This document shows positions 33,243-49,657 of a stretch of 64,000 bases of DNA, piece after piece. The stretch lies in the NCBI GenBank assembly GCA_964559675.1, contig CAZLHJ010000001.1:56285-120284 (forward strand), read 5' to 3'. Both the position numbers and the translations under genes were made by a program. This stretch comes from Candidatus Woesearchaeota archaeon. GTDB taxonomy: Archaea > Nanobdellota > Nanobdellia > Pacearchaeales > GW2011-AR1. How positions within the stretch are numbered: the first letter of the stretch is position 1; each line of letters begins with the position of its first letter. Under the pieces are notes generated by a model. It made no database searches and was not told the DNA's origin. It saw nothing but the letters and a program-made list of their open reading frames with translations.

Positions 33243-33698
33243 ATGAGTATAATTAAACCGGAACCAGCAACAATCAAAGACGCGATAAATCAAAGATTGA
33301 CCAATGGAGATCTTAGAATTGCTTTCGGTAGAGAGTTAAGGAGAGAAATAGATTCTCTTCAACTAGGGCCGACTCTTTCATATATAACCCAGTTTATTGG
33401 AAAGCATAAGGAATCGAGAGGATTTGAATATTCTATAGGGAGAGACACTCAAGTCTTAGCAACCTTAACTCGAGGAGGGACTCTAATGATTTACGGTGGA
33501 AAAGAAATGCACGATCTCATTGTTCCGCTTGCTAAAGAATTAAATCAAAGAGAGAGAACAAATTACCTTCTTCTTAAACAAAAAGACTCTCCAACACCCC
33601 CATTTAGAATAGTAAGTCCATTTTTAAGAGATTTTTACAGGCGAAGAATCGAAGGAGAATTACAAGAAGAATTTTTCATTAGAGAATCAGAATTTTAG
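33243..33698 (+). CDS. hypothetical protein
   Basis: 151-aa ORF. Confidence 0.4.
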   Translation: MSIIKPEPATIKDAINQRLTNGDLRIAFGRELRREIDSLQLGPTLSYITQFIGKHKESRGFEYSIGRDTQVLATLTRGGTLMIYGGKEMHDLIVPLAKELNQRERTNYLLLKQKDSPTPPFRIVSPFLRDFYRRRIEGELQEEFFIRESEF

Positions 33699-36352
33699 TT
33701 CAACTCATTCCAGAAATTCTTCTTATTATTCCAAAACTTTAACAAATCAAACACAAAGATAATACTAATTGCAGGTATCAAAGCAATCATCCAATAATAA
33801 GCACTCAATGGAACTGTCTGGAAAATTGAGTTCAAAGGAGAATGTATAATTAAAATTGTCAAAAGAATTGAGATTATTCCAGCAATAAACAAATATCTAT
33901 TTACAAAAGGAGATCTATTCAAAACTCCTTTTCTAAATGATCTGAAATTAAAAGCATTTGCAATTTCAAATATTATCAAAGAAACTAAGGCAGAAGTTCT
34001 AGCAATCTCTAAACTTTCTCCTAAAATAGAATAAACAAAATAGAATACTCCTAACGTTCCGAGGCCCATTACAAGCCCAGCGATTAAAAGTAGTGCAGTC
34101 AAGTCCTTATTTAATAAATTTGAATTTTTTCTCGGTTTCTTAGCCATAATATCTGTTGAGCTAGGATTCAACCCGAGAGTAATGGCGGTGATATCCGAAG
34201 TTACAAGATTCATAAACAAAATTTGAATTGCAACTAATGGCAAAGGTAAACCGATAGCAATCCCTAAAAATATAATAAATATCTCTGCATAACTACAAGA
34301 TAATTGATATGTGGTGAACTTTTTCATATTATTAAAAATTGTTCTTCCTTCTTTCACAGCTTCTAATATACTAGAAAAATGATCATCTTTCAAAATTAAA
34401 TCTGAAACTTCTCTTGAGACGTCTGTACCTTTTTTTCCCATTGCAACTCCAATATGTGCTGCTTTCAAAGCAGGAGCATCATTTACTCCATCTCCAGTCA
34501 TTGTTACAATCTCCCCATTTGTTTTGAGCGCATTAACAATTCTCAATTTGTGCTCAGGATTAACTCTTGCAAAGATAACTATATCATCTACCATTTTTTT
34601 CAATTTCTCATCACTAATTTTATCTAATTCATTTCCAGTTAAGCATAATCCTTTCAAACCTATTTGAGATGCAATAGAAATGGCAGTTTCTTTATTATCT
34701 CCAGTAATCATCTTAACTTTGATTCCCCCCTCTATGCATTCTTCAATGGCTTCTAAAACGCCCTTTCTTGGAGGATCTTCCATTGCAACAAATCCTAAGA
34801 AAATTAAATCTTCTTCAAATTCATCTCTATTTTTAGAATTAAATGGCTTATATGCAATCCCCACTGTCCTATATGCATTTAAATTAAATTCCTTATTTTT
34901 TTCTAAAATTCTCTCTTTTTCCTTTCTAGTTAATGTAAAGACTCCATTATTTCTCTGTACCCTAGAACACTTATCAATAACAATTTCTGGAGCTCCTTTT
35001 GTAAAAACAAATTTATCTTTTCCAAGTTTAGAAAGCACACTCATTAATTTCCTACTTGATGAAAAAGAAATCTCATCTAATCTTTGAGCATTCAAAGTTT
35101 CCTTAGTTATTCCGAGCTTTGACGCCATAACTAAAAGAGAAACTTCGGTCCCAGTTCCAATTGTATTAAATTCTTTTTCGTTCTCAACTTTTTGTATTTC
35201 AGAATCATTACATAAAACGGATGCTTTACCTAGTAAATCAAGAGCCCGGTTATCTCCAATTTCAATCTTCTTTTTATTATATAAGAGTTCTCCTTCCGAG
35301 TCATAACCATTTCCAGTTACATCTATAGTTTTATCATCCGCATAAATTGATTTTACTGTCATCTCTCCTCTTGTAATTGTGCCAGTTTTATCAGAACAAA
35401 TTACAGTAGTTTCTCCAAGAGTCTCAATTATAGACATTCTATTTACAATAGCGTTCTTTTTAGCCATTCTATATGCCCCAGAGGACAAAGTTGTAACTAA
35501 TGCAACTGGAAATCCTTCAGGGAAAGCTGAAACTGCTAATGCAATCGCAATAATCATTGCTTCAGTAAATAAATCATAATTGTATACTTCTGCTCTAAAA
35601 AAGAAAATAATCCCTGTTAAAATTGCAAAGAATATCGCAACAGTAGCCATCGTCTTGGTAATTTTATTTATTTTCTTTTGTAATGGCATCTCTTTTTCTT
35701 GTCTGGAAATTAAATTTGCAATTTTTCCAAATTTTGTTCTCATTCCAGTATAAGAAACCTTGGCTAAGCATCTACCATTTACAATGAATGTACCCATATA
35801 AATCATATTTTCTTCTTGAGGATCATCCAAATTCTTACACTCTTTCTTTGCGATTTCAACTGACTCACCAGTCAAAACAGATTCATCCACCCTAAGTTCT
35901 TTAGAATCAATTATAATACAATCTGCAGGAATCTTCTCTCCATTTCCTAGAACAAGTATATCTCCAGGAACTAACTCATTAGATGGAATTTTTTGTTGTA
36001 TTCCATCCCTTATAACAACTGAGATTGGAGTAATTAATTTCCTGAGGGAATCCACGGCTTTTTCAGCTTTATATTCTTGGAAAAAACCGACAGAAACTAC
36101 CATTAAAATAACTCCTAAAATCGCGTAAGCAGTGATATTCTTCCCAACAATAAAAGAAAGAGTCATAGCAACAAGCAATAAATAAATCACAAAATTATTC
36201 TTAATCTGCCTTGTTAAAATTTTAAACAAACTCGCCTTACCAATCTCACTTATCTCATTTCTTCCAAATTTAGCCAGTCTCTTTTCAGCTTCCTTACTCT
36301 CAAGACCCATTTCACCCTTCTCAACTCTTTTTACCATATCCTTAATTAACAA
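33695..36352 (-). CDS. P-type cation-transporting ATPase (P2-type, Ca2+/Mg2+-like)
   Basis: DKTGTIT phosphorylation site, PEGFP, TGDGVNDAPAL, ten TM helices. Confidence 0.95.
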   Translation of the reverse strand: MLIKDMVKRVEKGEMGLESKEAEKRLAKFGRNEISEIGKASLFKILTRQIKNNFVIYLLLVAMTLSFIVGKNITAYAILGVILMVVSVGFFQEYKAEKAVDSLRKLITPISVVIRDGIQQKIPSNELVPGDILVLGNGEKIPADCIIIDSKELRVDESVLTGESVEIAKKECKNLDDPQEENMIYMGTFIVNGRCLAKVSYTGMRTKFGKIANLISRQEKEMPLQKKINKITKTMATVAIFFAILTGIIFFFRAEVYNYDLFTEAMIIAIALAVSAFPEGFPVALVTTLSSGAYRMAKKNAIVNRMSIIETLGETTVICSDKTGTITRGEMTVKSIYADDKTIDVTGNGYDSEGELLYNKKKIEIGDNRALDLLGKASVLCNDSEIQKVENEKEFNTIGTGTEVSLLVMASKLGITKETLNAQRLDEISFSSSRKLMSVLSKLGKDKFVFTKGAPEIVIDKCSRVQRNNGVFTLTRKEKERILEKNKEFNLNAYRTVGIAYKPFNSKNRDEFEEDLIFLGFVAMEDPPRKGVLEAIEECIEGGIKVKMITGDNKETAISIASQIGLKGLCLTGNELDKISDEKLKKMVDDIVIFARVNPEHKLRIVNALKTNGEIVTMTGDGVNDAPALKAAHIGVAMGKKGTDVSREVSDLILKDDHFSSILEAVKEGRTIFNNMKKFTTYQLSCSYAEIFIIFLGIAIGLPLPLVAIQILFMNLVTSDITAITLGLNPSSTDIMAKKPRKNSNLLNKDLTALLLIAGLVMGLGTLGVFYFVYSILGESLEIARTSALVSLIIFEIANAFNFRSFRKGVLNRSPFVNRYLFIAGIISILLTILIIHSPLNSIFQTVPLSAYYWMIALIPAISIIFVFDLLKFWNNKKNFWNELN

Positions 36353-36408: not shown

Positions 36409-37089
36409 ATGGGTGAACAAAAAGAGTTTAAGGTAAAAGTCCTAGAGGCAGGATATGTCACTCACGACACAAGATATTTTATTATGGAGAAACCTAAGGA
36501 TTATTCTTATCTTCCCGGTCAAGCAACCGAGCTTTCTATTAACACTCCTGAATTAAAAGATAAAAAAAGACCATTTACATTTACAACTCATCCTGAAAAT
36601 CCTTTCTTAGAATTTACAATTAAAATGTATCCAGAACATGAAGACGGAGTAACTAAACATCTTAAAGACATAAAGGAAGGAGACGAATTCTTAATAGGAG
36701 AAAGCTGGGGAGCTATAAATTACAATGGGAAGGGAGTTTTCATTGCTGGAGGGGCTGGAATCACCCCATTCATAGCAATTCTAAGGCATCTAAGGAAAAA
36801 TAACCAATTACCGGGACACAAACTCTTATTCTCAAATAAAACTTCAAAAGATATTATACTAGAGCATGAATTCAAAGCAATGCTTGAAGAAAATTGCATC
36901 TTCACACTTACTCGAGAAGAAAATCCAAATTATCTAAATGAAAGAATAACTGAAGATTTTCTCAAATCTCATATAAAAGATTTCTCTCAACATTTTTATG
37001 TTTGCGGTCCAGCTCGTTTCGTCGGAGAAATCACATCAATTTTGCAAAAGCTCGGAGCTAACTCAGATTCAATTGTTGTAGAGACTTAA
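36409..37089 (+). CDS. FNR-like FAD/NAD(P)-binding oxidoreductase
   Basis: RPFTFTT (the RxYS-like FAD motif) and GGAGITPFIAIL (NAD-binding). Confidence 0.7.
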   Translation: MGEQKEFKVKVLEAGYVTHDTRYFIMEKPKDYSYLPGQATELSINTPELKDKKRPFTFTTHPENPFLEFTIKMYPEHEDGVTKHLKDIKEGDEFLIGESWGAINYNGKGVFIAGGAGITPFIAILRHLRKNNQLPGHKLLFSNKTSKDIILEHEFKAMLEENCIFTLTREENPNYLNERITEDFLKSHIKDFSQHFYVCGPARFVGEITSILQKLGANSDSIVVET

Positions 37090-37807: not shown

Positions 37808-38137
37808 ATGGCCCGAAATAAAACTAATACTACTGGTAGCATTGAATTTCCTAGAGTTCTTCCTCAATTAAAGGACTTGGATAAACTTAATTTAGATAAT
37901 GCAATAAAACGGCTTCTTAGAGAAGAAGCAAAATTATTCATTTATAGAAACAAGGTAATAGAAGTTAAAGATGAAACAATATGCTGTCATAAATGTTTAA
38001 ACGCGCACTTAGTCAAGACTTGGAACGATATGGGTCTAGATGGAGAAGGTGCAATAAAGCACTTAAAATTATGTGAAAAAGATATAGGTCACGAAGGATA
38101 TTACCTAGATGAAGAAAAACTTATCTCTTTATCTTAA
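37808..38137 (+). CDS. hypothetical Cys-containing protein
   Basis: 109-aa ORF with CCHKC...C. Confidence 0.35.
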   Translation: MARNKTNTTGSIEFPRVLPQLKDLDKLNLDNAIKRLLREEAKLFIYRNKVIEVKDETICCHKCLNAHLVKTWNDMGLDGEGAIKHLKLCEKDIGHEGYYLDEEKLISLS

Positions 38138-40081
38138 TTTTTTCATTTGAGAACCGATAAATTGTTGATGTTCAGATCTATCCACAACTCTTCTTACTTT
38201 GTAGAAATCTTCTCTCTTAGATCTTTCTACTTTTACGCTTCCCATTACTCTGGATTGTAATTCTCTAGAAATTAAGAATTCGTTATTAGAATAATCTGAG
38301 ATTTTCTTTGTTTTTATAACGGTATTTCCAATACTTGCGAATTTGAATTTTCCACCAGTTAAATCTACAACTAATTCTCCAATATGTGCTCCAATTCCAT
38401 AATCTATTTTCAATTTAGCTCCAGAATTGAACATATTTATTGAATCTTCAATTTGTTTAGCAACTTTAACAGCAACAAAACTATTATCTTCTTGTCCGGT
38501 CATTTTCTTTGTAAACATAATCAATCTATGATTTCCGTCGATAAATATTCTTGCTCCAGAGCTCTTTGCACTCATCAAAGCTTCTTCAACTACTTTAAGC
38601 CCTTGTGCTCCCTCTAAAGAATTATTTAATTCTCTATGGTTTCTTAAATATAATGAAACTATTCCTACTTGCTCTTTATTGCCTTGGTCCATGACTTCAG
38701 TTTTTCCCTCAGGCTTGGTCTTTTCTCTCCCAAATAATCTCTTTGTTTCAATACTTGTTACAGGAATAGAATCTTTCCTTCTCTTTCTATAATAAATAGC
38801 CAAGGTTGCTGCTAATATAATTAAAACCAAGACAAACCATGTAATAAATGCATATTTTCCAACAAACACTTCTCCAACGCTATCTACTCCAATTATTCTA
38901 GGTGTTAAGAAAGTTCTTCCAAGAGGAATTTCTCCAACTCCATCATTAACAAATACATCATATTCTCCCTTTGGAGCTTCTAATCTAATCCTTAACATCC
39001 CATTCACTGGAACATTTACTTCTCTAATTTCAGAAATCTCTCCAATTTTTACTTCAACAGGTTTTTTATATGGCACATTACCTTCATTAATTACAAATAA
39101 TGTTGAATTCTCGACGAAGAAGTTAACTTTTTCAAATTCTTCAACAAAGAATAATCTTTCATATTTCAAATCACTAAAGGTAGTTATTATTTTAGAATAT
39201 CCGCTAGAATAATTTCTAACTATCTCTAATTTTCTACTCTCGCCCGATTTAACTAATTCTTCCTTTATTAAATTTCCATTTGAATCATAAATTTGAGCAG
39301 CAATATTTTCATTTATTTTCTCTCCAGTTTGATCTTTTAATGTAATTTGATAAGATATTGAGTTTTCAGGAATTATATTTTGAACATCAGTCGCAATATC
39401 TATCTTACTAGGAACTTGTTTTATTCTTATTAAAAGACTTGAACTTCCCTTATTTAATGTGTTTCCATTATCATCTTTTTCTGAAGCATCGATTTTTAAT
39501 TTAAACTCTCCCGCTTTTGCATTTCCAGGAAGAGTTAAATTAGCGTCAAAGTTTCCATCTATTATTCTCGCATTTGTTTTAGCCTCAATGCCTTCAATCG
39601 AGATATCAACAAAACCATTAATTAAATCTCCATTTTTCTTAGCTACTTTTCCACCAACATAAACTACATCAGATGGATTAAAGATGGACTTAGAAATATC
39701 TACGTTTAAATCTAAATCTCTAGAAATTTCAAATTTCTGACTACTTGAAGTTTCAGAATCAAATTCTGCCTGAATAAAACATTCTCCTTGAAGATTTTCA
39801 ACAAAAACTCCTAACAAATTAATAGAAATTCCAACTTGCTTATCAATACCTTGTTTTACGCTATAAGGGCTCTTCAATAATTCTATGCTACTATTTCCAC
39901 AAACTAAATCTGCAATTAAAAAATCATTAATATTTTTCCCGTAACTTAATGTGATATCGACATCAAAATTATCTCCTATATTATAATAACTAGAAGGTTG
40001 AGAAAAGAAAATTTCAGCACTTACAGATGTTATTAAAAGAGCAGAAACTAGCACTCCCAATAGTAATCCTCTTTTTATCAT
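38129..40081 (-). CDS. receptor-like membrane protein: signal peptide, about 380-aa extracellular region, one TM helix, cytoplasmic degenerate class-III nucleotidyl-cyclase homology domain
   Basis: Signal peptide MIKRGLLLGVLVSALLITSVSA; TM ITWFVLVLIILAATLAIYY. The C-terminal GIGAHIGELVVDLTGGKFKFASIGNTVIKTKKIS and GARIFIDGNHRLIMF align with the CHD blocks (GIHtGpvvaGviG.kr..Y.v.GdtVN.AsR and kfIGDavMavF), but the canonical metal-binding Asp residues are not conserved. Confidence 0.5.
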   Translation of the reverse strand: MIKRGLLLGVLVSALLITSVSAEIFFSQPSSYYNIGDNFDVDITLSYGKNINDFLIADLVCGNSSIELLKSPYSVKQGIDKQVGISINLLGVFVENLQGECFIQAEFDSETSSSQKFEISRDLDLNVDISKSIFNPSDVVYVGGKVAKKNGDLINGFVDISIEGIEAKTNARIIDGNFDANLTLPGNAKAGEFKLKIDASEKDDNGNTLNKGSSSLLIRIKQVPSKIDIATDVQNIIPENSISYQITLKDQTGEKINENIAAQIYDSNGNLIKEELVKSGESRKLEIVRNYSSGYSKIITTFSDLKYERLFFVEEFEKVNFFVENSTLFVINEGNVPYKKPVEVKIGEISEIREVNVPVNGMLRIRLEAPKGEYDVFVNDGVGEIPLGRTFLTPRIIGVDSVGEVFVGKYAFITWFVLVLIILAATLAIYYRKRRKDSIPVTSIETKRLFGREKTKPEGKTEVMDQGNKEQVGIVSLYLRNHRELNNSLEGAQGLKVVEEALMSAKSSGARIFIDGNHRLIMFTKKMTGQEDNSFVAVKVAKQIEDSINMFNSGAKLKIDYGIGAHIGELVVDLTGGKFKFASIGNTVIKTKKISDYSNNEFLISRELQSRVMGSVKVERSKREDFYKVRRVVDRSEHQQFIGSQMKKLR

Positions 40082-40164
40082 GGGTTTTTAAAAGAACTTT
40101 TATATTTAAAGCTTATTGCTCTTCTTTCACGAATCTTTATAAATAAATAAAACTAATTCTTTTC

Positions 40165-41271
40165 ATGTCAAATAAAGAATCAGTGGTAAATCCATGGGAA
40201 GTTTCTGGAGATATTGATTATAATAAATTAGTAAAAGAATTTGGAGTAAGCATAATTCCAGATAATTTAAAAAAAGAATTCAAAAATCTTCATCCATTAT
40301 TAAGAAGAAGCATCTATTTTGCCCATAGAGATTTTGACAAATGGATAGAGAACCATAAAAAAGGTAAAAAAGTCTCAATTATTACAGGAAGAGGCCCATC
40401 TGAAAAAATGCACCTTGGCCACTTAGTTCCATTTTTAGTTGCAAAATCTCTCCAAGATCAATTTGATTGCGAAGTATTCATTCCAATTTCAGATGACGAA
40501 AAATTCTTCGTTAAAGAAGACTTGAATTTCAAAAATGCTTTAGAGTATTCTAAAGATAATATCTTAGATTTAATCGCACTTGGATTTAAACCAGGAAAAA
40601 CATTCATATTTCAAGACTTTGTCTACACAAATATCTACAAATACGCCGCCCAAGTTGCAAAAAGAATTAATTATTCTACTGCAAAAGCAGCTTTCGGATT
40701 AAAACCAGAAAATAATATCGGATGGAGCTTTTATCCAGCAGTTCAAGCAGCGCATATTTTATTCCCTCAATTTCAAAGGGGCAAACACCTTTCTTTAGTT
40801 CCAGTGGGGATAGATCAAGATCCATTTATCAGATTAACAAGGGATATAGCAAATCATAAAGATTTCAATTTTGAGAAACCTGCAGCAATCCACGCCCAAT
40901 TTATTCCTTCCTTACACGGAGGGGCAAAGATGAGTTCTTCTGGAGAAGGAGTAATCTTCTTATCAGATACTCCAAAGGAAGTTGAGAAGAAAATAAAGAG
41001 GTATGCCTTTTCAGGAGGAAGAGATACATTAGAAGAACATAGAAAATTAGGTGGAAATCCAGATGTAGATGTCTCATTCCAATACCTTAGAATTTTCTTT
41101 GAACCAGACGACATAGAATTAAAGAAAATAGAAAATGATTATCGAACTGGAAAATTACTTTCAGGTGAATTGAAACAAATTACAATTGATAAAATAAATG
41201 CATTTCTCAAAGAACATCAAGAGAACAAAAAGAAAGCCGAGAATCTCGTTGATAAATTTATATTAAAATAA
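40165..41271 (+). CDS. trpS: tryptophanyl-tRNA synthetase (archaeal/eukaryotic type)
   Basis: Class I HIGH-type motif MHLGHLVPF and KMSSS; archaeal-type N-terminal region. Confidence 0.9.
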   Translation: MSNKESVVNPWEVSGDIDYNKLVKEFGVSIIPDNLKKEFKNLHPLLRRSIYFAHRDFDKWIENHKKGKKVSIITGRGPSEKMHLGHLVPFLVAKSLQDQFDCEVFIPISDDEKFFVKEDLNFKNALEYSKDNILDLIALGFKPGKTFIFQDFVYTNIYKYAAQVAKRINYSTAKAAFGLKPENNIGWSFYPAVQAAHILFPQFQRGKHLSLVPVGIDQDPFIRLTRDIANHKDFNFEKPAAIHAQFIPSLHGGAKMSSSGEGVIFLSDTPKEVEKKIKRYAFSGGRDTLEEHRKLGGNPDVDVSFQYLRIFFEPDDIELKKIENDYRTGKLLSGELKQITIDKINAFLKEHQENKKKAENLVDKFILK

Positions 41272-41329
41272 ATTGAGACTTTTTATTAAAATTCTTAATT
41301 ACAATAATAATCTAAATAAGAAAAACTAA

Positions 41330-41758
41330 TTATCTCTCTTCTTCTTCTTCAGATTCTTCGTCAGAATCATCAGACTCTTCATCAGATAAATCTTCTTCAG
41401 AATCATCATAGTCAATTTCTAATTCACTTAGAACTTGTAAAATCTTATCTAACTTAGCATTAATTTGGTCAAATTGCTCAGAAGATACTCCTCCAGCAGA
41501 TGATCCGTGTTTCTTAGCATCAAAGCAGTTATCACATAATACTGGTTTACTTCCAGTTGGTCTAAATGGAACTTGACATCTCTTTCCACATTTATCACAT
41601 GTAGCATCAAACATTTCAGTAGTACCATCTCTTCCAAATGATCTTCCTCTTCCTCTATCTCCACCGAAGCTTCTTCCTCCGCCAGATCTACCTCTATCTC
41701 CACCGAATGATCTTCCACCACCGGATCTTCCTCGACTATCTCTTCCAAAGTTTCCCAT
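41330..41758 (-). CDS. small protein with RGG/GRSFGG N-terminus, C4 zinc ribbon and acidic Ser/Asp/Glu tail
   Basis: GGGRSFGGDRGRSGGGRSFGGDRGRGRSFG ... CDKCGKRC...CDNC ... DDSEEDLSDEESDDSDEESEEEEER. Confidence 0.6.
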   Translation of the reverse strand: MGNFGRDSRGRSGGGRSFGGDRGRSGGGRSFGGDRGRGRSFGRDGTTEMFDATCDKCGKRCQVPFRPTGSKPVLCDNCFDAKKHGSSAGGVSSEQFDQINAKLDKILQVLSELEIDYDDSEEDLSDEESDDSDEESEEEEER

Positions 41759-41853
41759 AGAGATTTACTAAATCGTGGGTATTTAAAGGTATGTTATTTT
41801 GAAGTATCCTCCTTACACCTTAAATTAAAACTCCTTCAAGGCTTTCCAGAATA

Positions 41854-43164
41854 ATGGCTAAAGTAATAATTATAGGAGGAGGGCTTTCAGGGCTATCGTG
41901 TGCAGCAAAACTCATTGAAGAAGGCTTCGAAGTAGAAATATACGAAAAAGAATCCGAATTAGGGGGAAGGGCTTCAAATTGGATTGAGAAGGGAAAACCC
42001 ATTGAAAGTGGAGTTCACACATATTTCGGAATTTATTCTCATCTCTCTAAACTATTAAGAAAAGCAAATATCGATCTAAATAGTTTTTTGAAATGGCAAT
42101 ACTCAATTACATTCATAGGAAAAGATAAGAAAAAATATGTTTATGCACTAAATCCAATCCTCGCCCCAATAACTTTCTTAAAAGGAGTGTTTGGAAATAA
42201 TTCATTCCTATCTTTTTATGATAAATTCACTTTACTAAAATCAGTAATTTATGGCTTAACCTTTTTCAATTATTACAAGAAGCATACCTTAAGGGAATGG
42301 AAGAAAGATTCAAATTTATCAGAAAACGCATACGAAAACTTTATTAGGCCTCTTGTGAGAGGTTTAACCTTTGCAGAACCTGAGGAATTAAGTGCAAGGG
42401 TCTTCTTTAATTTACTTTTACACATGATAAAAAACCCCCTGAATGTCAAAGCAGGTAGTTTCAAAGGAGGAATGACAGATGTAATGATAAATCCGTTAGC
42501 AAAATGGTTAAAAAATAAAGGAGTTAAGATACACACAGATTCAGAAATATCTTCTTTAATCTACTCTAATCAAGATAACTCAATTAATGGAATAAAATTA
42601 AAAAATGGAAAAATAAAAAGTGCAGATATTTATGTTTCTGCAATACAATTAGAATTTATCCAGAAACTACTTCCAAATAAACTCTTCACAGAACTAAAAT
42701 CTATTGAAACTGTTCCTGCCACCTCAGTTCAAATCTTATTTGATAAAAAATTAATCTTTAATGATGATTTTCATTTCTTAGCAAGAAGTCCGTTCATAAT
42801 ATTTCAAGATGAATCTAATACTTTCTACCCCTCAATATCAAGTTATTTATCTGGACAAATTACAGATAGGAAAACAGACAAATTCTCAGATAAGGCACTC
42901 TTATATCTAGCCCTTAAACAGATTAATTTGTATCTCCCACAATCTAAGGATTCACAAGTAATTAAATCACATATTGTTAGGCACAATGCCATATTGCTTA
43001 CCCCTAAAAATTACAAGCTAAGGCCGGAGGCAAAAACAAAAATCTCCAATTTATTTCTAGCAGGAGATTACGTTAAACAAGAATGGTATACAACAATGGA
43101 AGGCGCAGTTAGGGGTGGAGAATTAGCCGCGAAAGAAATTATCTCTAAATTTTCCCCCATCTAG
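41854..43164 (+). CDS. FAD-dependent oxidoreductase (amine-oxidase/phytoene-desaturase-like)
   Basis: N-terminal dinucleotide-binding fingerprint KVIIIGGGLSGLSCAAKL...EKESELGGRA. Confidence 0.8.
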   Translation: MAKVIIIGGGLSGLSCAAKLIEEGFEVEIYEKESELGGRASNWIEKGKPIESGVHTYFGIYSHLSKLLRKANIDLNSFLKWQYSITFIGKDKKKYVYALNPILAPITFLKGVFGNNSFLSFYDKFTLLKSVIYGLTFFNYYKKHTLREWKKDSNLSENAYENFIRPLVRGLTFAEPEELSARVFFNLLLHMIKNPLNVKAGSFKGGMTDVMINPLAKWLKNKGVKIHTDSEISSLIYSNQDNSINGIKLKNGKIKSADIYVSAIQLEFIQKLLPNKLFTELKSIETVPATSVQILFDKKLIFNDDFHFLARSPFIIFQDESNTFYPSISSYLSGQITDRKTDKFSDKALLYLALKQINLYLPQSKDSQVIKSHIVRHNAILLTPKNYKLRPEAKTKISNLFLAGDYVKQEWYTTMEGAVRGGELAAKEIISKFSPI

Positions 43165-43660
43165 ACCCATGTCCTCTAGAATCTATATGTGTAAAATTAT
43201 GATATTTACCAAGTCCTCCTCTGTTACCCCAATGAGGATTTAAACGGTCATAAACTTCAATCGGATTAACTCCTCTAACAACAAAATCTACTGCAATCCC
43301 TTCTAAATGCTTACTATTCTCTTCACCACCAACTTTCTTATTTGAAACAGGATCTCTATACCAAGAGTTAACTGTGATGGGTTTATTTCCAAAATAGTCT
43401 CTCACTTCTTCCATAAAATTGGCAGCTTCTAAAATTCCTTTCACAATCTTTTCATTATTGGGAATTCTTGTTCCGTTCTTTGTCGCTTCTGCCCAATTAA
43501 AATGTCCTCCATTTAGAATTTTATCTCTTAATGAGACTTCTCCAACGTAAGGCAAAACTAATTTTCCAGTATTCGCTTCAGCAATATTTTGGGAAAAACC
43601 ATACGTGCTCATTCCTGCGACAATAAGCCCTTTAAGAAAATCTCTTCTACTTCCTTCCAT
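43145..43660 (-). CDS. Tat-signal peptidase M15 (D-Ala-D-Ala carboxypeptidase/VanY/DUF882-like) zinc hydrolase
   Basis: Twin-arginine signal MEGSRRDFLKGLIVAGMS; SWYRDPVSNKKVGGEENSKHLEGIAVDF...GGLGKYHNFTHIDSR matches the M15 pattern (SxHxxGxAxD...H). Confidence 0.75.
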   Translation of the reverse strand: MEGSRRDFLKGLIVAGMSTYGFSQNIAEANTGKLVLPYVGEVSLRDKILNGGHFNWAEATKNGTRIPNNEKIVKGILEAANFMEEVRDYFGNKPITVNSWYRDPVSNKKVGGEENSKHLEGIAVDFVVRGVNPIEVYDRLNPHWGNRGGLGKYHNFTHIDSRGHGSRWGKI

Positions 43661-43904
43661 ACTCCCTTTCCTCTTTTTTATCTAACTCTCCAAATAATTT
43701 TCTCTCAAATTCACCATCACTCTCTCCGTATTTGATTGAAGTCGGATTTCTGTTATATTCTTCTTCTGTTTGAACTCTTGTTAAATTATAATCTTTAGAA
43801 TCCTCAACGCATCTAACTACATTTCCAATTAAAACAGTACCTACTAATCCTCCAACAATCGCGGTTTCAATAGCTCTTCTTTTTATAAAATCTTTAAGTG
43901 ACAT
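43647..43904 (-). CDS. small membrane protein
   Basis: 85-aa ORF with one TM helix; overlaps the M15 gene start. Confidence 0.35.
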   Translation of the reverse strand: MSLKDFIKRRAIETAIVGGLVGTVLIGNVVRCVEDSKDYNLTRVQTEEEYNRNPTSIKYGESDGEFERKLFGELDKKEEREYGRK

Positions 43905-44037
43905 TTCACCAACCTCCTTCTTTAAAGCGCTGGTAAAATCAATTCACATTTTCCCTTTTTAAATCTTTCTATTTGTAGTTACTAGATAATAATAACACTT
44001 TAGAAAAGCTTAAATACTCAAATTTCATTATTTTTTT

Positions 44038-44613
44038 ATGAATTTAAATCCATTCACAGTAGTAGACAACGCCTTAGTCTACGGAGCATCCAAATTAACT
44101 CACGCGAATTGGGCAACCGGAGAAACTCGAGCTCAATTAGCAAATAAAATGCTAACAATAGGTTCAATAAGCCAATCTGTCGGCCTACCTCCCACTGCCC
44201 CTCTTTGGTTAGGTATAGCTCATCTTCATCAAAAACGAAATAATAAAGCTGACGAATTGGACTCACAAGCAAATGAAAATTCAGCAATTGATTTAAATCG
44301 TCAAGAATACCATATTTTCATGAGTTATATATTTGGTGCACTAGCAAATTATCATTTTCTTAATCAAGATGAAGGCCCTATTGTTGAATTCGCACATACT
44401 CTTTTAGGTGCAGGCCATTCATTAGTCTCAGCATCGCACTTCGTCATGAGAACACCATACTTACCTCCAAAGAAAAACTGCGTAAGAAGAGGAGTTGACA
44501 AATTATCTGAGATGGTTGAAAAATACAAACCACAACCAAAAACAGAAAGAGAGGCTTTACCTATTCCAGCTTTAGTCAACAATAAAAACTATTTATTAGA
44601 GAATTTAATCTAA
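44038..44613 (+). CDS. hypothetical protein
   Basis: 191-aa ORF between the two hydrolase-like genes. Confidence 0.35.
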   Translation: MNLNPFTVVDNALVYGASKLTHANWATGETRAQLANKMLTIGSISQSVGLPPTAPLWLGIAHLHQKRNNKADELDSQANENSAIDLNRQEYHIFMSYIFGALANYHFLNQDEGPIVEFAHTLLGAGHSLVSASHFVMRTPYLPPKKNCVRRGVDKLSEMVEKYKPQPKTEREALPIPALVNNKNYLLENLI

Positions 44614-45197
44614 GAAGCTCTTCGCAATAAAGTATCTCGAATAATTTCAACAGGTCGATTATTTATCTCTATTAATTGTCTAAGTGAAACCACTCTTCTC
44701 TCTGAAATTCTTTGCTCTCCTAAAATTAGAGTTCCGCTTGGAAGCTCGCCTAAAAATACTCCTACATGAGTATATCTCACAGGTTTTCCTTCCCTATCTA
44801 AATTTTTATTGAATCTACTTCCAGGATGATAAATACCAATAAGATCTCCCTTTCCAATTTCACCATTTCTAAATTGCTCTTGAAAATCATGAACTTGAAT
44901 TGTCTCATAAACTAAATGTAAATCCCATGCTGAAGCTAAACAATCTTGTGAAGGAGCATATCTTTTACCAAAAACCTCATTTGCAACTATTCTAGCATAT
45001 TTTACACAATGAAGTGGTGGAATAAAATCTAAATTATATATTGGAAATTCACAAACACTTCCATCATTTAATTTAATCAAATCCACTCCAGATTTTAGAT
45101 CGTCTTCTTCTACTCGTAATTTAGTTATATATGAGCTATCAACCATTCCATGATTTTTGACATCAACATCTTTAAATATATCTTTTTTCTCCCACAA
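44610..45197 (-). CDS. NlpC/P60-like (papain-fold) hydrolase
   Basis: Cys motif APSQDCLASAWDLHLVY (DCSG-like) followed by the His motif RYTHVGVFLG. No signal peptide. Confidence 0.55.
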   Translation of the reverse strand: MWEKKDIFKDVDVKNHGMVDSSYITKLRVEEDDLKSGVDLIKLNDGSVCEFPIYNLDFIPPLHCVKYARIVANEVFGKRYAPSQDCLASAWDLHLVYETIQVHDFQEQFRNGEIGKGDLIGIYHPGSRFNKNLDREGKPVRYTHVGVFLGELPSGTLILGEQRISERRVVSLRQLIEINNRPVEIIRDTLLRRAS

Positions 45198-45199
45198 TT

Positions 45200-46927
45200 A
45201 TGAAGATATTGACATTACATTGCGATTATATCAAATATAAACCCTTGAAGAAAGCTTTCAAGGATGCAGAGGAACTTAAAAACAAAGAACAAGTAGAAGT
45301 TAGTGAGCCGCTTGTAGTTTTAGCAGCAGTTGAAAAAGGAGATTCAGACTCAGAGGTAAAAAAAGTTGTTGAATCAATCGATAAAACTGCTAAAGAAGTA
45401 AAAGCAGAAAATATTGTAGTTTATCCTTATGCTCATCTCTCATCTAATTTATCCAACCCAAACACCGCTTTAGGATACTTAACAGAAATAACAAAATCTC
45501 TCCAGAAATTAAAATATAATGTAGAGAGGGCACCATTCGGACATTACAAAGAATTCGAATTAAAAGTAAAGGGGCATCCATTATCTGAATTATCCAAAAC
45601 TTTCATTTCAGAAATTCAATCTAGTAAGGCAGAATCTAAAGAAGAGGAAAAAGAAGAAGATATTTCTAAGCTTCTTAAAGAGATTTCACGTTCAAAACTA
45701 GATACAAGTAAACTAAAAGAAAACGACCACAGAATTCTCGGACAAAAATTAGATTTATTTTCATTTAACGAATCAGCTCCTGGAAGTGTATTCTGGCACC
45801 CTAATGGGCAAATATTATATGCAGAACTTGTAAGATTTTCAAAAGAAATTCAAAAAGATTTAGGATATCACGAAGTATCCACCCCTCAGATTTACGATAA
45901 TAAATTATGGAAAGTTTCAGGACATTGGGGAAAATACAAAGAAAATATGTTTTTAACAAATTATGAAGGAAAAGATGCTGCAGTAAAACCGATGAATTGT
46001 CCAGGACATCATCTTTTATTTAGAACCAAAACGCGAAGTTATAAAGACCTTCCATTAAGATTTTCAGAATACTCTCCATTACACAGAATGGAATTATCGG
46101 GAGTATTAAATGGATTATTCAGAGTAATTAGATTACATCAAGACGACGCACATATATTTATCGCACCAGAGCAATTAGAGAGCGAAGCAACAAATGTACT
46201 AAATCTTTTCAAGCAGTTTTTAGATAAATTCGGATTTACTTATACTTTTACCTTAAGTGTAAGAAGTAAAGAAAAGAAAGACAAATATCTTGGAGACGAT
46301 AAATTATGGAAAGAAGCAGAAGATTCGCTTGAAAAAGTTCTAAATAAAAATAAACTTAAATTCGAAAGAATGGAAGGGGAAGCAAAATTCTATGGTCCAA
46401 GTCTAGATGTTCAGATAAGAGACTCCCTTGGAAGAGAATGGCAATGCTCCACTCTTCAAGTAGACTTTAACCTTCCTAGAAGATTTGAATTACAATACAC
46501 TGGAGAAGATAATAAACCACACATGCCAATAGTTTTACACAGGGCAGTTTTCGGTTCTTTAGAAAGATTCATTGGAATACTATTGGAGCATTTAAATGGA
46601 AATCTTCCAGTCTGGCTTTCACCAATTCAAGTAAGAGTAATTAATTTCACAGACAGAAATACAAAAACAGCTGAGAAAATAATAGAAAAGTTACAAAAAG
46701 AAATTCCTTCTTTAAGAATTGACTCAGACTTAAGAAATACCACCGTAAATGATAAAGTTAGAGACGCCGAATTAATGAAAATACCTAATATTGTAGTAAT
46801 CGGAGATAAAGAGGAGGAAAAAGGAACTTTAGCAGTAAGAAGACGTGGCGAAAAGAAACCTGAATTCGGAGTAAAATTAGAAGATTTTGTTAAAGAATTA
46901 AAAGATAAAATTGAGAAGAGAAATTAA
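45200..46927 (+). CDS. thrS: threonyl-tRNA synthetase (archaeal type with N-terminal editing domain)
   Basis: Archaeal N-terminal editing domain and class II core (FWHPNGQ..., MNCPGH, motif 3 region). Confidence 0.9.
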   Translation: MKILTLHCDYIKYKPLKKAFKDAEELKNKEQVEVSEPLVVLAAVEKGDSDSEVKKVVESIDKTAKEVKAENIVVYPYAHLSSNLSNPNTALGYLTEITKSLQKLKYNVERAPFGHYKEFELKVKGHPLSELSKTFISEIQSSKAESKEEEKEEDISKLLKEISRSKLDTSKLKENDHRILGQKLDLFSFNESAPGSVFWHPNGQILYAELVRFSKEIQKDLGYHEVSTPQIYDNKLWKVSGHWGKYKENMFLTNYEGKDAAVKPMNCPGHHLLFRTKTRSYKDLPLRFSEYSPLHRMELSGVLNGLFRVIRLHQDDAHIFIAPEQLESEATNVLNLFKQFLDKFGFTYTFTLSVRSKEKKDKYLGDDKLWKEAEDSLEKVLNKNKLKFERMEGEAKFYGPSLDVQIRDSLGREWQCSTLQVDFNLPRRFELQYTGEDNKPHMPIVLHRAVFGSLERFIGILLEHLNGNLPVWLSPIQVRVINFTDRNTKTAEKIIEKLQKEIPSLRIDSDLRNTTVNDKVRDAELMKIPNIVVIGDKEEEKGTLAVRRRGEKKPEFGVKLEDFVKELKDKIEKRN

Positions 46928-47268
46928 GTGCTTCTTGAATTTACTCTGTTCCTAGGAGTATAACTTCCATTTGAGCTTCTACCTCTTCTTGAACCAGATT
47001 CATCCCCGCCCCTTCCAGAGGCATTCGAAAATCTAGTCTCTCCTAACCCTATTTTTTTCATTCTTGGATCTGTGGGTTTTAATGCAATATGTCCTAACAT
47101 ACTCTCAAGGGCCCTCTGAAGAGTAATTTTCCTTAAACTAACTTCAGAAGATCTAGGAATAATGTACGGATCATCTCTCCCAACTATTGAAATGGCCATA
47201 TATCTCTCTCCAAGCTCGTTTTCATCAAGTTTTTCTTGATATTTTTGGTTTATTTCATAAACTCTCAT
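46924..47268 (-). CDS. hypothetical protein with Arg/Ser/Gly-rich tail
   Basis: 114-aa ORF. Confidence 0.35.
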   Translation of the reverse strand: MRVYEINQKYQEKLDENELGERYMAISIVGRDDPYIIPRSSEVSLRKITLQRALESMLGHIALKPTDPRMKKIGLGETRFSNASGRGGDESGSRRGRSSNGSYTPRNRVNSRST

Positions 47269-47355
47269 GTTGTTAAATCAAAACAACCATTTTTAAAACT
47301 ATCTCCTAAAAACTTATAAACTCCTTCAATCACATTTACATCATAAAAGAGCAAA

Positions 47356-48003
47356 ATGAAAGTCGATCCATATGTTGAAAAATTAAATTCTTCACAAGAA
47401 TTTAAAGAATTTAAGGAAAAAAACCCTGATTCTTATTTAGCCGCAGGTTTCTTCATTATAGATTTAGAAAATGAGAACAACATTCATCAAATAGATTATT
47501 ACATTCCATCTAGCAAGAAAATTGCAGCTTTCACATTAGATGAAGAAATTAAAGTTCAAGTTTTAGATACTTTAAATGAAAAAGTTCCAGAGAAACTTGA
47601 TCTTAAAATTAATACTGATTTAGAAGCTCTAAAGGGAATTTTAGAAGATGAAATGAAAAATAGGAATATGTCTCAAAGTATTAAGAAATTAATTGCAGTG
47701 ATCCAAACTATTGAAGGAAAAGACACTTGGACAATAAATTGTGTTCTTTCAGGAATGGAAATTCTAAGAGCAAGTATTGAAGATGAGTCCAAAACTGTCT
47801 TAAAAATGGAAAAATCCTCAATAATGGAGTTTGTCAAGAAAGTCCCAGTTCAACAACTAAAACCAAAACCTAGCCCAGAATCTAAGGAGCAAATAAAACA
47901 AGAGCTCTCAAAATTGAACGAATTAGCAGATGAAATCAAAAAAGAAAAATCTGAATTGGAAAGCGAGTTAAAAGATTTAGAAGAAAATAAAGATAAAAAG
48001 TAA
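47356..48003 (+). CDS. hypothetical coiled-coil protein
   Basis: 215-aa ORF. Confidence 0.4.
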   Translation: MKVDPYVEKLNSSQEFKEFKEKNPDSYLAAGFFIIDLENENNIHQIDYYIPSSKKIAAFTLDEEIKVQVLDTLNEKVPEKLDLKINTDLEALKGILEDEMKNRNMSQSIKKLIAVIQTIEGKDTWTINCVLSGMEILRASIEDESKTVLKMEKSSIMEFVKKVPVQQLKPKPSPESKEQIKQELSKLNELADEIKKEKSELESELKDLEENKDKK

Positions 48004-48540
48004 TTATTTCTTATTCCACAACATCTTCGTATACCCTTCACTTATAATTTCCTTCTTACTTACTCCCAACTTCTCAATAACGTCATAAACTTCCTTCCTA
48101 GCTCTTTCCACATTTTTTTCTAAACATAAATATTCAACTTCAATGAAATGACCGAGACCCTTTACTTTATTTAATTCGATATGAAAATTCTTCTTTATTT
48201 CATATAATTCAGTGACTTTCTCTTTAGTAAGCCATTTCTTAAAACCAAAATCTTCCAATAATAATAAATATCCTTCAATTTCTTTCGTTTTAAACTCAAT
48301 TTCATTTTTTGCATAAACTCCTTTAATATAAGATAATTTTTTTTTAAAATTAACTTCATAAAATCCTCCTCTCTTTCTTACTCTCAAACTCTTTCTAGGA
48401 TATTTTTCACAATTCTCAAGAGTGTAATAATCATCAATCTTTCTCTCTTTTTTTGTAAATTTAGCTAATTTTTTAATATCTAATCTAAATTTATCGACTT
48501 CATTCTCAGAAATTTTTATTTTTGCTTCTACCTCTATCAT
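48004..48540 (-). CDS. CYTH-domain protein (CyaB/thiamine-triphosphatase-like)
   Basis: MIEVEAKIKI (the ExExK motif) and the rest of a CYTH barrel pattern. Confidence 0.8.
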   Translation of the reverse strand: MIEVEAKIKISENEVDKFRLDIKKLAKFTKKERKIDDYYTLENCEKYPRKSLRVRKRGGFYEVNFKKKLSYIKGVYAKNEIEFKTKEIEGYLLLLEDFGFKKWLTKEKVTELYEIKKNFHIELNKVKGLGHFIEVEYLCLEKNVERARKEVYDVIEKLGVSKKEIISEGYTKMLWNKK

Positions 48541-48590
48541 ATCAAAATAAATTAAATTTAATAAAATAATAAAAAAATAAATTTTTGTTT

Positions 48591-49043
48591 TTAGTTACAA
48601 ACAACTGTCTTTGGAGAAAAGTCACATGTGTTTGTCTCTCCATTTTCTTTCAAGACAACTCCTGCTACTCTAACTTCACTTGGTGTTCCAGCAACTCCAG
48701 TCAAATTCGCGCTAGCTGTAGCTCCCTCAAGAATTCCTCCAGGAATCGTACTAGTAGACCTGACAATCGTTTCATCACCATACTTAAATCCAAGTTTAAC
48801 TTCAGTTAAATCAACATCTCCGCCCTTCCATCTATATTTGACAGTAGCATTTTTTGAAGTCGAATCATAGTCACAACTTGTTGGTTCAAGCTCAAGTTCA
48901 ATACAACTTGTAGTTAAACTCTCTCCTGCTTTCTGAATAGCGGGTTTTACAAAACTCCAAACTATTAATACAGCAGCAATTGCAAGTAAGATAATTAAGA
49001 CAGTAGTAACAACATCACTCAATCCTCTTTTATTTTTATACAT
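48591..49043 (-). CDS. archaeal type IV pilin-like protein (class III signal peptide, DUF361-like)
   Basis: MYKNKRGLSDVVTTVLIILLAIAAVLIVWSFV, the signature of a prepilin-peptidase-processed archaeal signal. Confidence 0.75.
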   Translation of the reverse strand: MYKNKRGLSDVVTTVLIILLAIAAVLIVWSFVKPAIQKAGESLTTSCIELELEPTSCDYDSTSKNATVKYRWKGGDVDLTEVKLGFKYGDETIVRSTSTIPGGILEGATASANLTGVAGTPSEVRVAGVVLKENGETNTCDFSPKTVVCN

Positions 49044-49113
49044 TTTTACCCTCCTTTCACCATTAAATTGGATAATTAATAAAGCAAAAAGTTGTTTATA
49101 TACGTTTCTATAA

Positions 49114-49326
49114 CTAAATTATTTCAACAGGATGGATCTTAACAATTCTAGGGTCTAGAGGAGGTAATCTTTGTAAATCTCTAATATTCCCATCATAAGT
49201 AATCCTACACTCTCCGTTTTGAGTGGTCCTAACCTCAACACCTTCAAGACTTGCAAGCACACCTCGTGCATCATCCATCATTCCAGTTCCCTTGTATTTT
49301 CTATCAATTGTTAATGTGTATTCCAT
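49114..49326 (-). CDS. small protein, paralogue of 49363..49623
   Basis: LEGVEVRTTQNGECRITYDG in this ORF versus VEGVRDISPTVGTRGLGQFTYTG in the neighbour. Confidence 0.35.
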   Translation of the reverse strand: MEYTLTIDRKYKGTGMMDDARGVLASLEGVEVRTTQNGECRITYDGNIRDLQRLPPLDPRIVKIHPVEII

Positions 49327-49362
49327 AAGCGAATCTTTAAAATTAAGCTTTTAAATACATTT

Positions 49363-49623
49363 CTATCTTCTTGGACCAGAGGTTTGCAACTCAAGATAAA
49401 TAACTGGTTCGATAAAAACTCTTTCCTCACTAAGTCCAGAGCTTCCATAAATATTTTCTATTCCGCCTCTTCCAGTATATGTGAATTGTCCTAGCCCTCT
49501 AGTTCCAACAGTGGGGCTTATGTCTCTTACTCCCTCAACCCTACTTAATTTTTGAACAACTTCTTCTAAAACCGCAGGATCTTCTCTAAATTCTCTTCTT
49601 ACTGCTATTACAAAATCTGTCAT
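49363..49623 (-). CDS. small protein, paralogue of 49114..49326
   Basis: See above. Confidence 0.35.
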   Translation of the reverse strand: MTDFVIAVRREFREDPAVLEEVVQKLSRVEGVRDISPTVGTRGLGQFTYTGRGGIENIYGSSGLSEERVFIEPVIYLELQTSGPRR

Positions 49624-49657
49624 AAAAAAATAGCTAATTCTTAGTTTATAAATCTAA

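Follow-up and report, generated by a model that had tools for sequence, protein, structure and literature searches.

A receptor-like membrane protein with a degenerate class III cyclase homology domain in a Candidatus Woesearchaeota genome

Receptor cyclases are the described systems closest in overall plan to the protein considered here. The receptor guanylyl cyclase GC-A (9bcv/9bcs) and the receptor adenylyl cyclases of trypanosomatids follow one logic: a signal peptide, a large ectodomain, a single transmembrane (TM) helix and a C-terminal class III cyclase homology domain (CHD). In the heterodimeric class III cyclases of mammals (C1/C2) one partner is degenerate; the C2 domain of mammalian adenylyl cyclase (AC; 1azs_B) and the NeoR-type subunits lack the pair of metal-binding Asp residues, as does the protein described below, and have no catalysis alone. 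Class III catalysis relies on two indispensable metal-binding Asp residues, a pair of residues specifying the substrate, and an Asn and an Arg serving the transition state (PMC4886424). In canonical membrane-coupled cyclases a positionally conserved helical cyclase-transducing element (CTE) of 19 amino acids (aa) is indispensable for signal transmission (PMC9552081). We consider here a gene of the receptor-cyclase plan that occupies positions 38129..40081, minus strand, of a 64,000-nucleotide stretch (the window) of contig CAZLHJ010000001.1 from a Candidatus Woesearchaeota archaeon. All coordinates below are those of the window unless another locus is named, and all features of the gene lie on the minus strand.

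The gene begins with ATG, ends with the stop codon at 38129-38131 and encodes a type I membrane protein of 650 aa; a chance open reading frame (ORF) is excluded by full-length homologs with E-values down to 5.5e-126. A reading made earlier from the letters of the window alone (the sequence-only reading) had described a signal peptide, an extracellular region of about 380 aa, a single TM helix and a cytoplasmic cyclase-like domain without the canonical metal-binding Asp residues, and our analysis agrees with it in each of these points. The function that we consider most plausible, at roughly 55%, is that of a pseudo-cyclase receptor or adhesin working by clustering, in which a phosphate-bearing ligand or a partner would occupy the basic pocket of the dead CHD.

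The cytoplasmic domain and its former active site

The cytoplasmic tail comprises residues 435-650, and its last 184 residues align with class III cyclases. They form a degenerate class III CHD, or pseudo-CHD (aa 467-650, 38132..38683), recognised in AlphaFold 2 (AF2) models, by Foldseek, HMMER and hhalign, and through PF00211 in relatives. The AF2 model of this domain alone has a predicted local distance difference test score (pLDDT) of 87.7 and a predicted TM-score (pTM) of 0.82. Compared with the PDB by Foldseek, it retrieves class III CHDs in all of the top 50 positions, with E-values from 1.3e-11 to 2.7e-8 and probability 1.00; the matches span about 175-197 aligned columns and have moderate TM-scores, 0.55-0.70. 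These 50 structures include Cya2, CyaC, RhGC, CyaB, the cyclase domain of GC-A, the C2 domain of mammalian AC, Rv1625c, soluble guanylyl cyclase (sGC) and Rv1900c. There are no GGDEF or other palm domains among them, GGDEF and the CHD being related in fold only distantly. The closest solved CHD is that of Synechocystis Cya2 (2w01), whose fold agrees throughout the domain (E 1.3e-11, about 190 columns) and whose homology can also be seen in the sequence. The beta4-beta5 region, the dimerisation arm of canonical CHDs, is present in the model.

Single-sequence searches do not reveal this relationship. The Pfam model Guanylate_cyc has no match in the 650-aa protein at E<=10, whether the full length or the isolated tail is used, and nine full-length homologs are also without a match to it. 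Likewise, no cyclase match emerges when the 650-aa protein is scanned as a single sequence against Pfam, NCBIfam, PDB and PADLOC. At the family level the picture is different. When the tails of 60 relatives were isolated, PF00211 matched 32 of them (best E 8.6e-6), and it is the sole recurrent Pfam family, every other one occurring in at most three of the 60 tails. Compared with canonical PF00211 members, the domain of the 650-aa protein falls below the Pfam gathering threshold; it also differs from them in lacking a transducer helix and in being archaeal. A profile of seven tails finds 2w01 (Cya2) in the PDB with E 3.8e-5, and a profile of 60 tails finds it by HMMER with E 1.3e-6, followed by other adenylyl and guanylyl cyclases. 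The hhalign comparison of the family profile with genuine Cya2-type cyclases gives a probability of 97.9% and E 5.5e-13 in the local mode and of 98.4% and E 3.6e-14 in the global mode, and a comparison with just one genuine cyclase sequence (probability 92.5%, E 4.9e-7) retains the identical register. Reciprocally, a hidden Markov model (HMM) built from genuine cyclases alone and run against 584 six-frame ORFs of the window and the fetched loci matches only ORF 38129..40081 (E 7.8e-7) and its orthologs. Motifs common to the tail and the cyclases, F-x-P...A-V...A, G-I-G-x-x-x-G-E and G-N-T-V...A-x-(K/R), stand in register. We regard the homology of the tail to class III CHDs as established and convergence as effectively excluded. 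The check suggested with the sequence-only reading, a search with the Guanylate_cyc model, is thus negative for the protein itself and positive for the tails of the 32 relatives; where that reading would have been contradicted by the lack of any CHD HMM match together with an unrelated fold, we observe PF00211 at the level of the family and, among the 50 best structural matches, CHDs only.

The residues of the active site were compared in 151 relatives. The position of the first metal-binding Asp is taken by Tyr478 (codon 38648..38650) according to the extended and global hhalign register, in which the canonical M-A-D-L-R-G-F-T of strand beta1 falls on S-L-Y478-L-R-N-H-R, and this register agrees with the boundaries in the AF2 model, where the strand ends at 479 and the next helix starts at 482. 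In the relatives this position is K106/N15/R14/Y6, that is, Lys or Arg in 120 of 151 and never Asp or Glu. Moreover, no relative has an acidic residue anywhere at 474-479, and the loss of the first metal ligand is therefore robust to a shift of the register. The position of the second Asp is occupied by Asn517 (codon 38531..38533), as the canonical E/K-F-I-G-D of the beta2-beta3 turn falls on F513-I-D-G516-N517 with high hhalign confidence; the family has D62/N39/E24 here, with Asp or Glu in 86 of 151. The first residue of this motif, Phe513 (38543-38545), stands at the Lys/Glu specificity position, which in the relatives is Y124/F9. A by-eye register that placed K511 and D515 on K-x-x-G-D was dropped in favour of the gap-free hhalign and HMMER register, with G516-N517 on G-D.

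The remaining catalytic positions lie in the segment A582-S-I-G-N-T-V-I589-K-T-K592-K593 (38303..38338), which HMMER comparison with RhGC and Cya2 and hhalign align, with high confidence, to the canonical (D/T/C)-x-x-G-D-T-V-N-x-A-S-R. The second specificity residue is Ala582 (T77/V19/S16/A12 in the family), the transition-state Asn is replaced by Ile589 at a variable position (S45/I18/P16/V15/N14), and the transition-state Arg by Lys593 (K68/R58). Position 592 is Lys or Arg in 100% of the family. The G-N-T-V of this segment, in place of G-D-T-V, equals the C2-type motif. Hence, relative to a Cya2-type CHD, Y478, N517, F513, A582 and I589 replace the catalytic set, and Arg has become Lys. The complete set is found in none of the 151 relatives. 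The alignments show that the tail no longer has the canonical catalytic residues, as the sequence-only reading had stated for the metal-binding Asp residues.

The predicted pocket is strongly basic, with 79-100% Lys or Arg at positions 478, 480, 558, 592 and 593, and the near-invariant polar and charged residues of the CHD are N481, T528, N533, N552, K558 and K592. A basic residue at 478 is modestly associated with an acidic one at 517 (odds ratio 3.0, p 0.008, Fisher test with phylogeny ignored); with an acidic residue at 515 the odds ratio is 0.2 (p 5e-4), that is, a non-basic 478 pairs with an acidic 515. The family apparently has two sub-types, one with Lys/Arg478 and Asp/Glu517, the other with a non-basic 478 and Asp/Glu515, often with Asn517; the protein of the window (Y478/D515/N517) is of the second sub-type. 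This pattern is a hint that charges within the former metal site compensate one another, possibly also by a Lys478-Asp517 salt bridge.

The ectodomain, the membrane anchor and the family

The ectodomain (residues 23 to about 407, about 385 aa) is all-beta and consists of four beta-sandwiches. D1 (aa 23-120, 39722..40015, delimited by AF2 secondary structure) contains Cys61 and Cys101, a probable disulfide; both are conserved in 100% of 127 full-length relatives. D2 (aa 122-220, 39422..39718) resembles the macroglobulin (MG) domain MG2, as indicated by Foldseek and by a sub-threshold match of the Pfam model MG2 (PF01835) to the 650-aa protein, E 4.3e-4 and 21 bits against the threshold of 32.8; the same model matches eight of nine homologs, with the best E 3.8e-9. 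D3 (aa 224-313, 39143..39412) is modelled with pLDDT about 90 and is covered by the Foldseek alignment with multiple MG domains. The membrane-proximal D4 (aa 319-401, 38879..39127), defined by the AF2 model and family conservation, is the best-conserved part of the ectodomain, with invariant N332, G334 and N335 and the LTG motif at 392-394.

The best PDB matches of the full-length model are C4, C3, C5, TEP1, CD109, alpha2-macroglobulin and the bacterial ECAM. The E-values are about 1e-12 over 420-500 columns; the arrangement of the domains relative to one another is different, which keeps the TM-scores low. Tandem MG-like beta-sandwiches are thus common to this protein and the alpha2-macroglobulin/complement family (C3-C4-C5, TEP1, CD109, ECAM). 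However, here there are four domains only, no CUB domain, a TM anchor of the protein's own and a fusion to the CHD. Neither a thioester (CGEQ-type) nor a bait region nor an array of at least seven MG domains was found in the ectodomain of about 385 aa, and C61 and C101, the sole Cys residues of the protein, are not in a CxEQ context. The ectodomain is a bare rod of four domains of the MG or immunoglobulin (Ig) type without thioester, bait or receptor-binding domain. It differs likewise from the ectodomains of receptor cyclases, whose ligand domain is of the periplasmic-binding-protein type; further, the protein has no kinase-homology domain, coiled coil or CTE, and its CHD is degenerate.

The full-length AF2 model (mean pLDDT 80.6) shows, in this order, an N-terminal helix, the four beta-sandwiches, a long helix, a stretch with pLDDT below 50 and an alpha/beta domain at 468-650. 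The hydrophobicity scan of the 650-aa protein finds two hydrophobic segments, aa 1-22 and about 405-433. The former is the cleavable signal peptide (aa 1-22, MIKRGLLLGVLVSALLITSVSA, 40016..40081), helical at 3-17 in the model; it ends with VSA, followed by EIF, and Ala22 is conserved in 92% of the family. The latter is the single TM helix (aa 408-434 in the AF2 model, 38780..38860), followed by the basic YRKRRK. Two database matches, to 'Heimdall-CTERM' (E 0.032) and to the adenosine receptor A3 (E 0.61), were dismissed, the former as reflecting only the TM helix and basic residues and not being C-terminal, the latter as TM-only. The Lys/Ser-rich linker between the membrane and the CHD (aa 435-466, 38684..38779) is disordered, with pLDDT below 50 over 434-466 and no helix. 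Across the 127 full-length relatives its median identity is 12% and its length varies from 22 to 162 aa. Neither the model nor the comparison of family linkers shows a conserved helical cyclase-transducer element upstream of the CHD.

The family is large. Counted in clusters at 50% identity, an exhaustive search with the tail profile yields 1037 representatives with E-values up to 1e-3; of these, 576 reach 1e-10 or better and 439 reach 1e-30 or better. The word-indexed homolog search gave eight relatives only and thus strongly under-reported the family. Nearly all of the top 150 members are 630-700 aa long, with the CHD at the C-terminus. The 127 full-length relatives are collinear and nearly gap-free, and the fusion is strictly kept. 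Their median identity to the window protein is 29-40% and differs little between the four sandwiches and the CHD, which suggests selection on the unit as a whole. At the same time, genome pairs with 63-64% identity in threonyl-tRNA synthetase (ThrRS) share 32-34% in the receptor, which therefore evolves fast, like surface proteins. The nearest named relatives of the window ThrRS, 62-69% identical, come from metagenome-assembled genomes of Candidatus Pacearchaeota, Nanoarchaeota and Nanoarchaeia. This is a large unannotated family of Pacearchaeota/Nanoarchaeota-type DPANN archaea. The sequence-only reading had considered such a protein rare in reduced archaeal genomes; on the contrary, the family is widespread there. 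It has no name in databases, its members being listed as hypothetical or unnamed because standard Pfam and NCBIfam scans miss the CHD, and we found no description in the literature of this family or of archaeal pseudo-cyclases.

Proposed function and alternatives

From the architecture we infer a receptor function. In the proposed mechanism the protein would make neither cAMP nor cGMP. The MG stalk would engage an external ligand or surface, plausibly the envelope of a host or neighbouring cell, and this engagement would alter the oligomeric or clustering state of the protein. Since the linker is floppy and variable and a rigid helix to act as transducer is lacking, proximity would carry the signal, and the tails would form or rearrange CHD head-to-tail dimers. 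The basic former active-site pockets would bind a phosphate-bearing ligand, a nucleotide being the obvious candidate, or a cytoplasmic partner, with no metal-dependent turnover. Such a protein may be likened to the degenerate GGDEF/EAL receptors, to the C2-type pseudo-site of mammalian cyclases and to pseudokinase receptors, where a conserved enzyme-derived domain is retained minus its catalysis; for the GGDEF/EAL and pseudokinase receptors the analogy would be functional only.

Several points weigh against this. Surface proteins of a purely structural kind have MG-like domains as well. At the first metal site, the register comes from a low-confidence segment of the hhalign alignment, and the 478/517 covariation was counted over relatives irrespective of their phylogeny. 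About 57% of the relatives keep Asp or Glu at 517 and about 83% keep Arg or Lys at 593, which could mean residual or altered chemistry. Dimerisation, ligand binding and signalling are all steps that we infer, and partners or effectors may be encoded elsewhere in the genome, our view being that of 64 kb.

The alternative that fares best, although we consider it rather unlikely, gives the protein a passive role as a structural component or adhesin of the cell surface. The MG rod would be a part of the envelope or of an attachment device and the dead CHD a cytoplasmic oligomerisation plug or anchor that neither senses a ligand nor relays a signal. The loss of the catalytic residues, the flexible, non-conserved linker without a transducer element, and the fast evolution relative to ThrRS in the same genome pairs would all fit such a protein, and Ig-like and MG modules are typical of structural and adhesive proteins. 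However, conservation is as strong in the CHD as in the ectodomain, the near-invariant polar and charged residues of the CHD exceed the needs of a simple plug, and a fusion strictly kept in all 127 full-length relatives also speaks against it.

A more elaborate version of the receptor hypothesis, for which we see only a small chance, makes the protein a contact receptor conserved in, and specific to, the lineage of Pacearchaeota-type DPANN archaea. The MG rod would read the envelope of a host or partner, and the Lys-substituted CHD would either bind nucleotides in a metal-free manner, as a cytoplasmic sensor of energy or signals, or perform a new, metal-independent nucleotidyl reaction; the neighbouring tryptophanyl-tRNA synthetase (TrpRS) gene would perhaps be co-regulated by way of the shared promoter. 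If true, receptor-type signalling through a CHD would here be described in archaea for the first time.

We consider it unlikely that the protein is an active enzyme of unusual chemistry, perhaps a one-metal or Lys-assisted nucleotidyl cyclase or transferase making a second messenger. Such an enzyme could draw on the acidic residue that 57% of relatives retain at 517 or that, with a non-basic 478, stands at 515, and on the basic residues at 592, where they are invariant, and at 593, where 83% of relatives have them; Rv1900c is one of the real cyclases that can do without the transition-state Asn (PMC4886424). But the first metal Asp is gone in 151 of 151 relatives and the second is not conserved, being Asn in 39 of 151, the window protein included, while both are regarded as indispensable (PMC4886424), and the specificity residues have been replaced by aromatic or small ones. 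If this alternative held, the protein would be a true receptor cyclase of DPANN archaea.

Slightly less likely still is a heterodimeric cyclase in which the tail would be the C2-like or NeoR-like, non-catalytic half, supplying a regulatory or substrate-binding half-site to a competent CHD partner encoded elsewhere. The family often keeps Lys or Arg at 593 and Thr at 582, residues normally contributed by the C2-type subunit. Heterodimers of rhodopsin cyclases with NeoR, where one partner is degenerate, are known (PMC8815786). However, C2 and NeoR domains have a catalytic partner and keep the Lys/Asp, Asn and Arg, whereas here the C2-side residues are degenerate too, with Tyr or Phe at 513 in 133 of 151 relatives and the Asn lost. 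Searching the 64-kb window and the syntenic loci of other genomes (together about 60 kb), we found no further CHD gene, and the reduced size of DPANN genomes does not favour a separate partner either. Finally, that the tail is unrelated to cyclases and has reached a ferredoxin-like or palm beta-alpha-beta-beta-alpha-beta fold by convergence is hardly credible: the 650-aa protein alone indeed lacks a Pfam or PDB sequence match to cyclases and the TM-scores are only moderate, but the sequence-only profile matches are significant, specific and reciprocal, with the motifs in register, and all of the top 50 structures are CHDs, none being GGDEF or another palm domain.

The locus and the meaning of the family

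The receptor gene shares an AT-rich spacer of 83 bp (40082..40164), with TATA-like boxes facing each gene, with the divergent TrpRS gene (40165..41271, plus strand; Pfam tRNA-synt_1b, E 7e-34). The spacer is a putative bidirectional promoter. TrpRS is divergent from the receptor gene in five of six informative genomes, namely in the window and in the loci L001 (6805-7911), L002 (6449-7573, with one small gene in between), L004 (2565-3692) and L007 (3-911); in L006 the pairing is not present. In L007 it is kept even though TrpRS is only 41% identical to that of the window. This pairing was unexpected and stands out more in the context of the receptor gene than the CYTH gene described below. Such recurrence could reflect co-regulation or merely persistent synteny.

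A CYTH gene (48004..48540, minus strand; Pfam E 1.1e-9) does lie at the distance given in the sequence-only reading, which had placed it 8 kb downstream; the actual distance is 7.9 kb, and relative to the minus-strand receptor gene it is upstream. It is syntenic in L001 and L002; in L006 and in L004, where about 3.8 kb was covered on that side of the receptor, no CYTH gene was called nearby. The CYTH family is near-universal in archaea, and the characterised archaeal member is a triphosphatase (PMC8233210, PMC10249747). Archaeal CYTH proteins being triphosphatases and not cyclases as a rule, the window gene most likely encodes a housekeeping triphosphatase; a link between it and the receptor appears weak, and we see no support for it in function. 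This CYTH/TTM gene sits among three aminoacyl-tRNA synthetase genes located within about 11 kb (40165-51322), those of TrpRS (40165-41271), ThrRS (45200-46927) and glutamyl-tRNA synthetase (GluRS, 49658-51322), in the same order in L001 and L002. The window ThrRS carries the archaea-specific editing domain.

Other genes of the neighbourhood are as follows. The Peptidase_M15_3 gene (43145-43660, minus strand, E 2.7e-19) encodes a bacterial-type D-Ala-D-Ala, or cell-wall, peptidase, and in L004 an SLT lytic transglycosylase with a PG_binding_1 domain (1748-2593) adjoins TrpRS; the presence of murein-targeting enzymes near the locus may point to a bacterial host or prey. The small protein encoded at 41330-41758 (minus strand) carries RGG/GGRS repeats at its N-terminus and a strongly acidic tail of Asp, Glu and Ser at its C-terminus, and it also contains a treble-clef zinc finger (PF23477, E 1.6e-15); from its sequence it looks like a nucleic-acid-binding or chaperone-like protein. 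A Peptidase_M48 gene is found 1.4-4 kb downstream of the receptor gene in L001 (11417-12325), L002 (11553-12464), L004 (9922-10836) and L006 (7437-8342), together with LemA in L001 and L002. It is not seen in the corresponding region of the window, which contains instead the genes of a P-type ATPase (33695-36352) and an FNR-like oxidoreductase (36409-37089). The 3' end of the receptor gene overlaps by 9 nt (38129-38137) the convergent ORF 37808-38137 (plus strand), which encodes a Cys/His-rich product of 109 aa with no Pfam match; this overlap fits a very compact genome. The GC content of the window is 30-35%, its GC skew is negative over most of the length with a change of sign near 58 kb, and ARAGORN detects no tRNA genes in the 64 kb.

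Returning to the pseudo-cyclase receptor or adhesin, we note first a point of annotation: standard Pfam and NCBIfam scans miss the CHD. Cyclic-nucleotide signalling in these archaea is not thereby shown, and for this protein the evidence rather argues against it. Few signalling proteins can be recognised in the tiny genomes of the DPANN archaea, organisms of a symbiotic type, and little is known of the ways in which they sense their partners and attach to them. The family is a concrete candidate for such a role, as receptor or adhesin of the DPANN surface. It is also a rare case of a whole lineage of homomeric-type pseudo-cyclases, and lets one ask why the pocket of a dead CHD has been kept.

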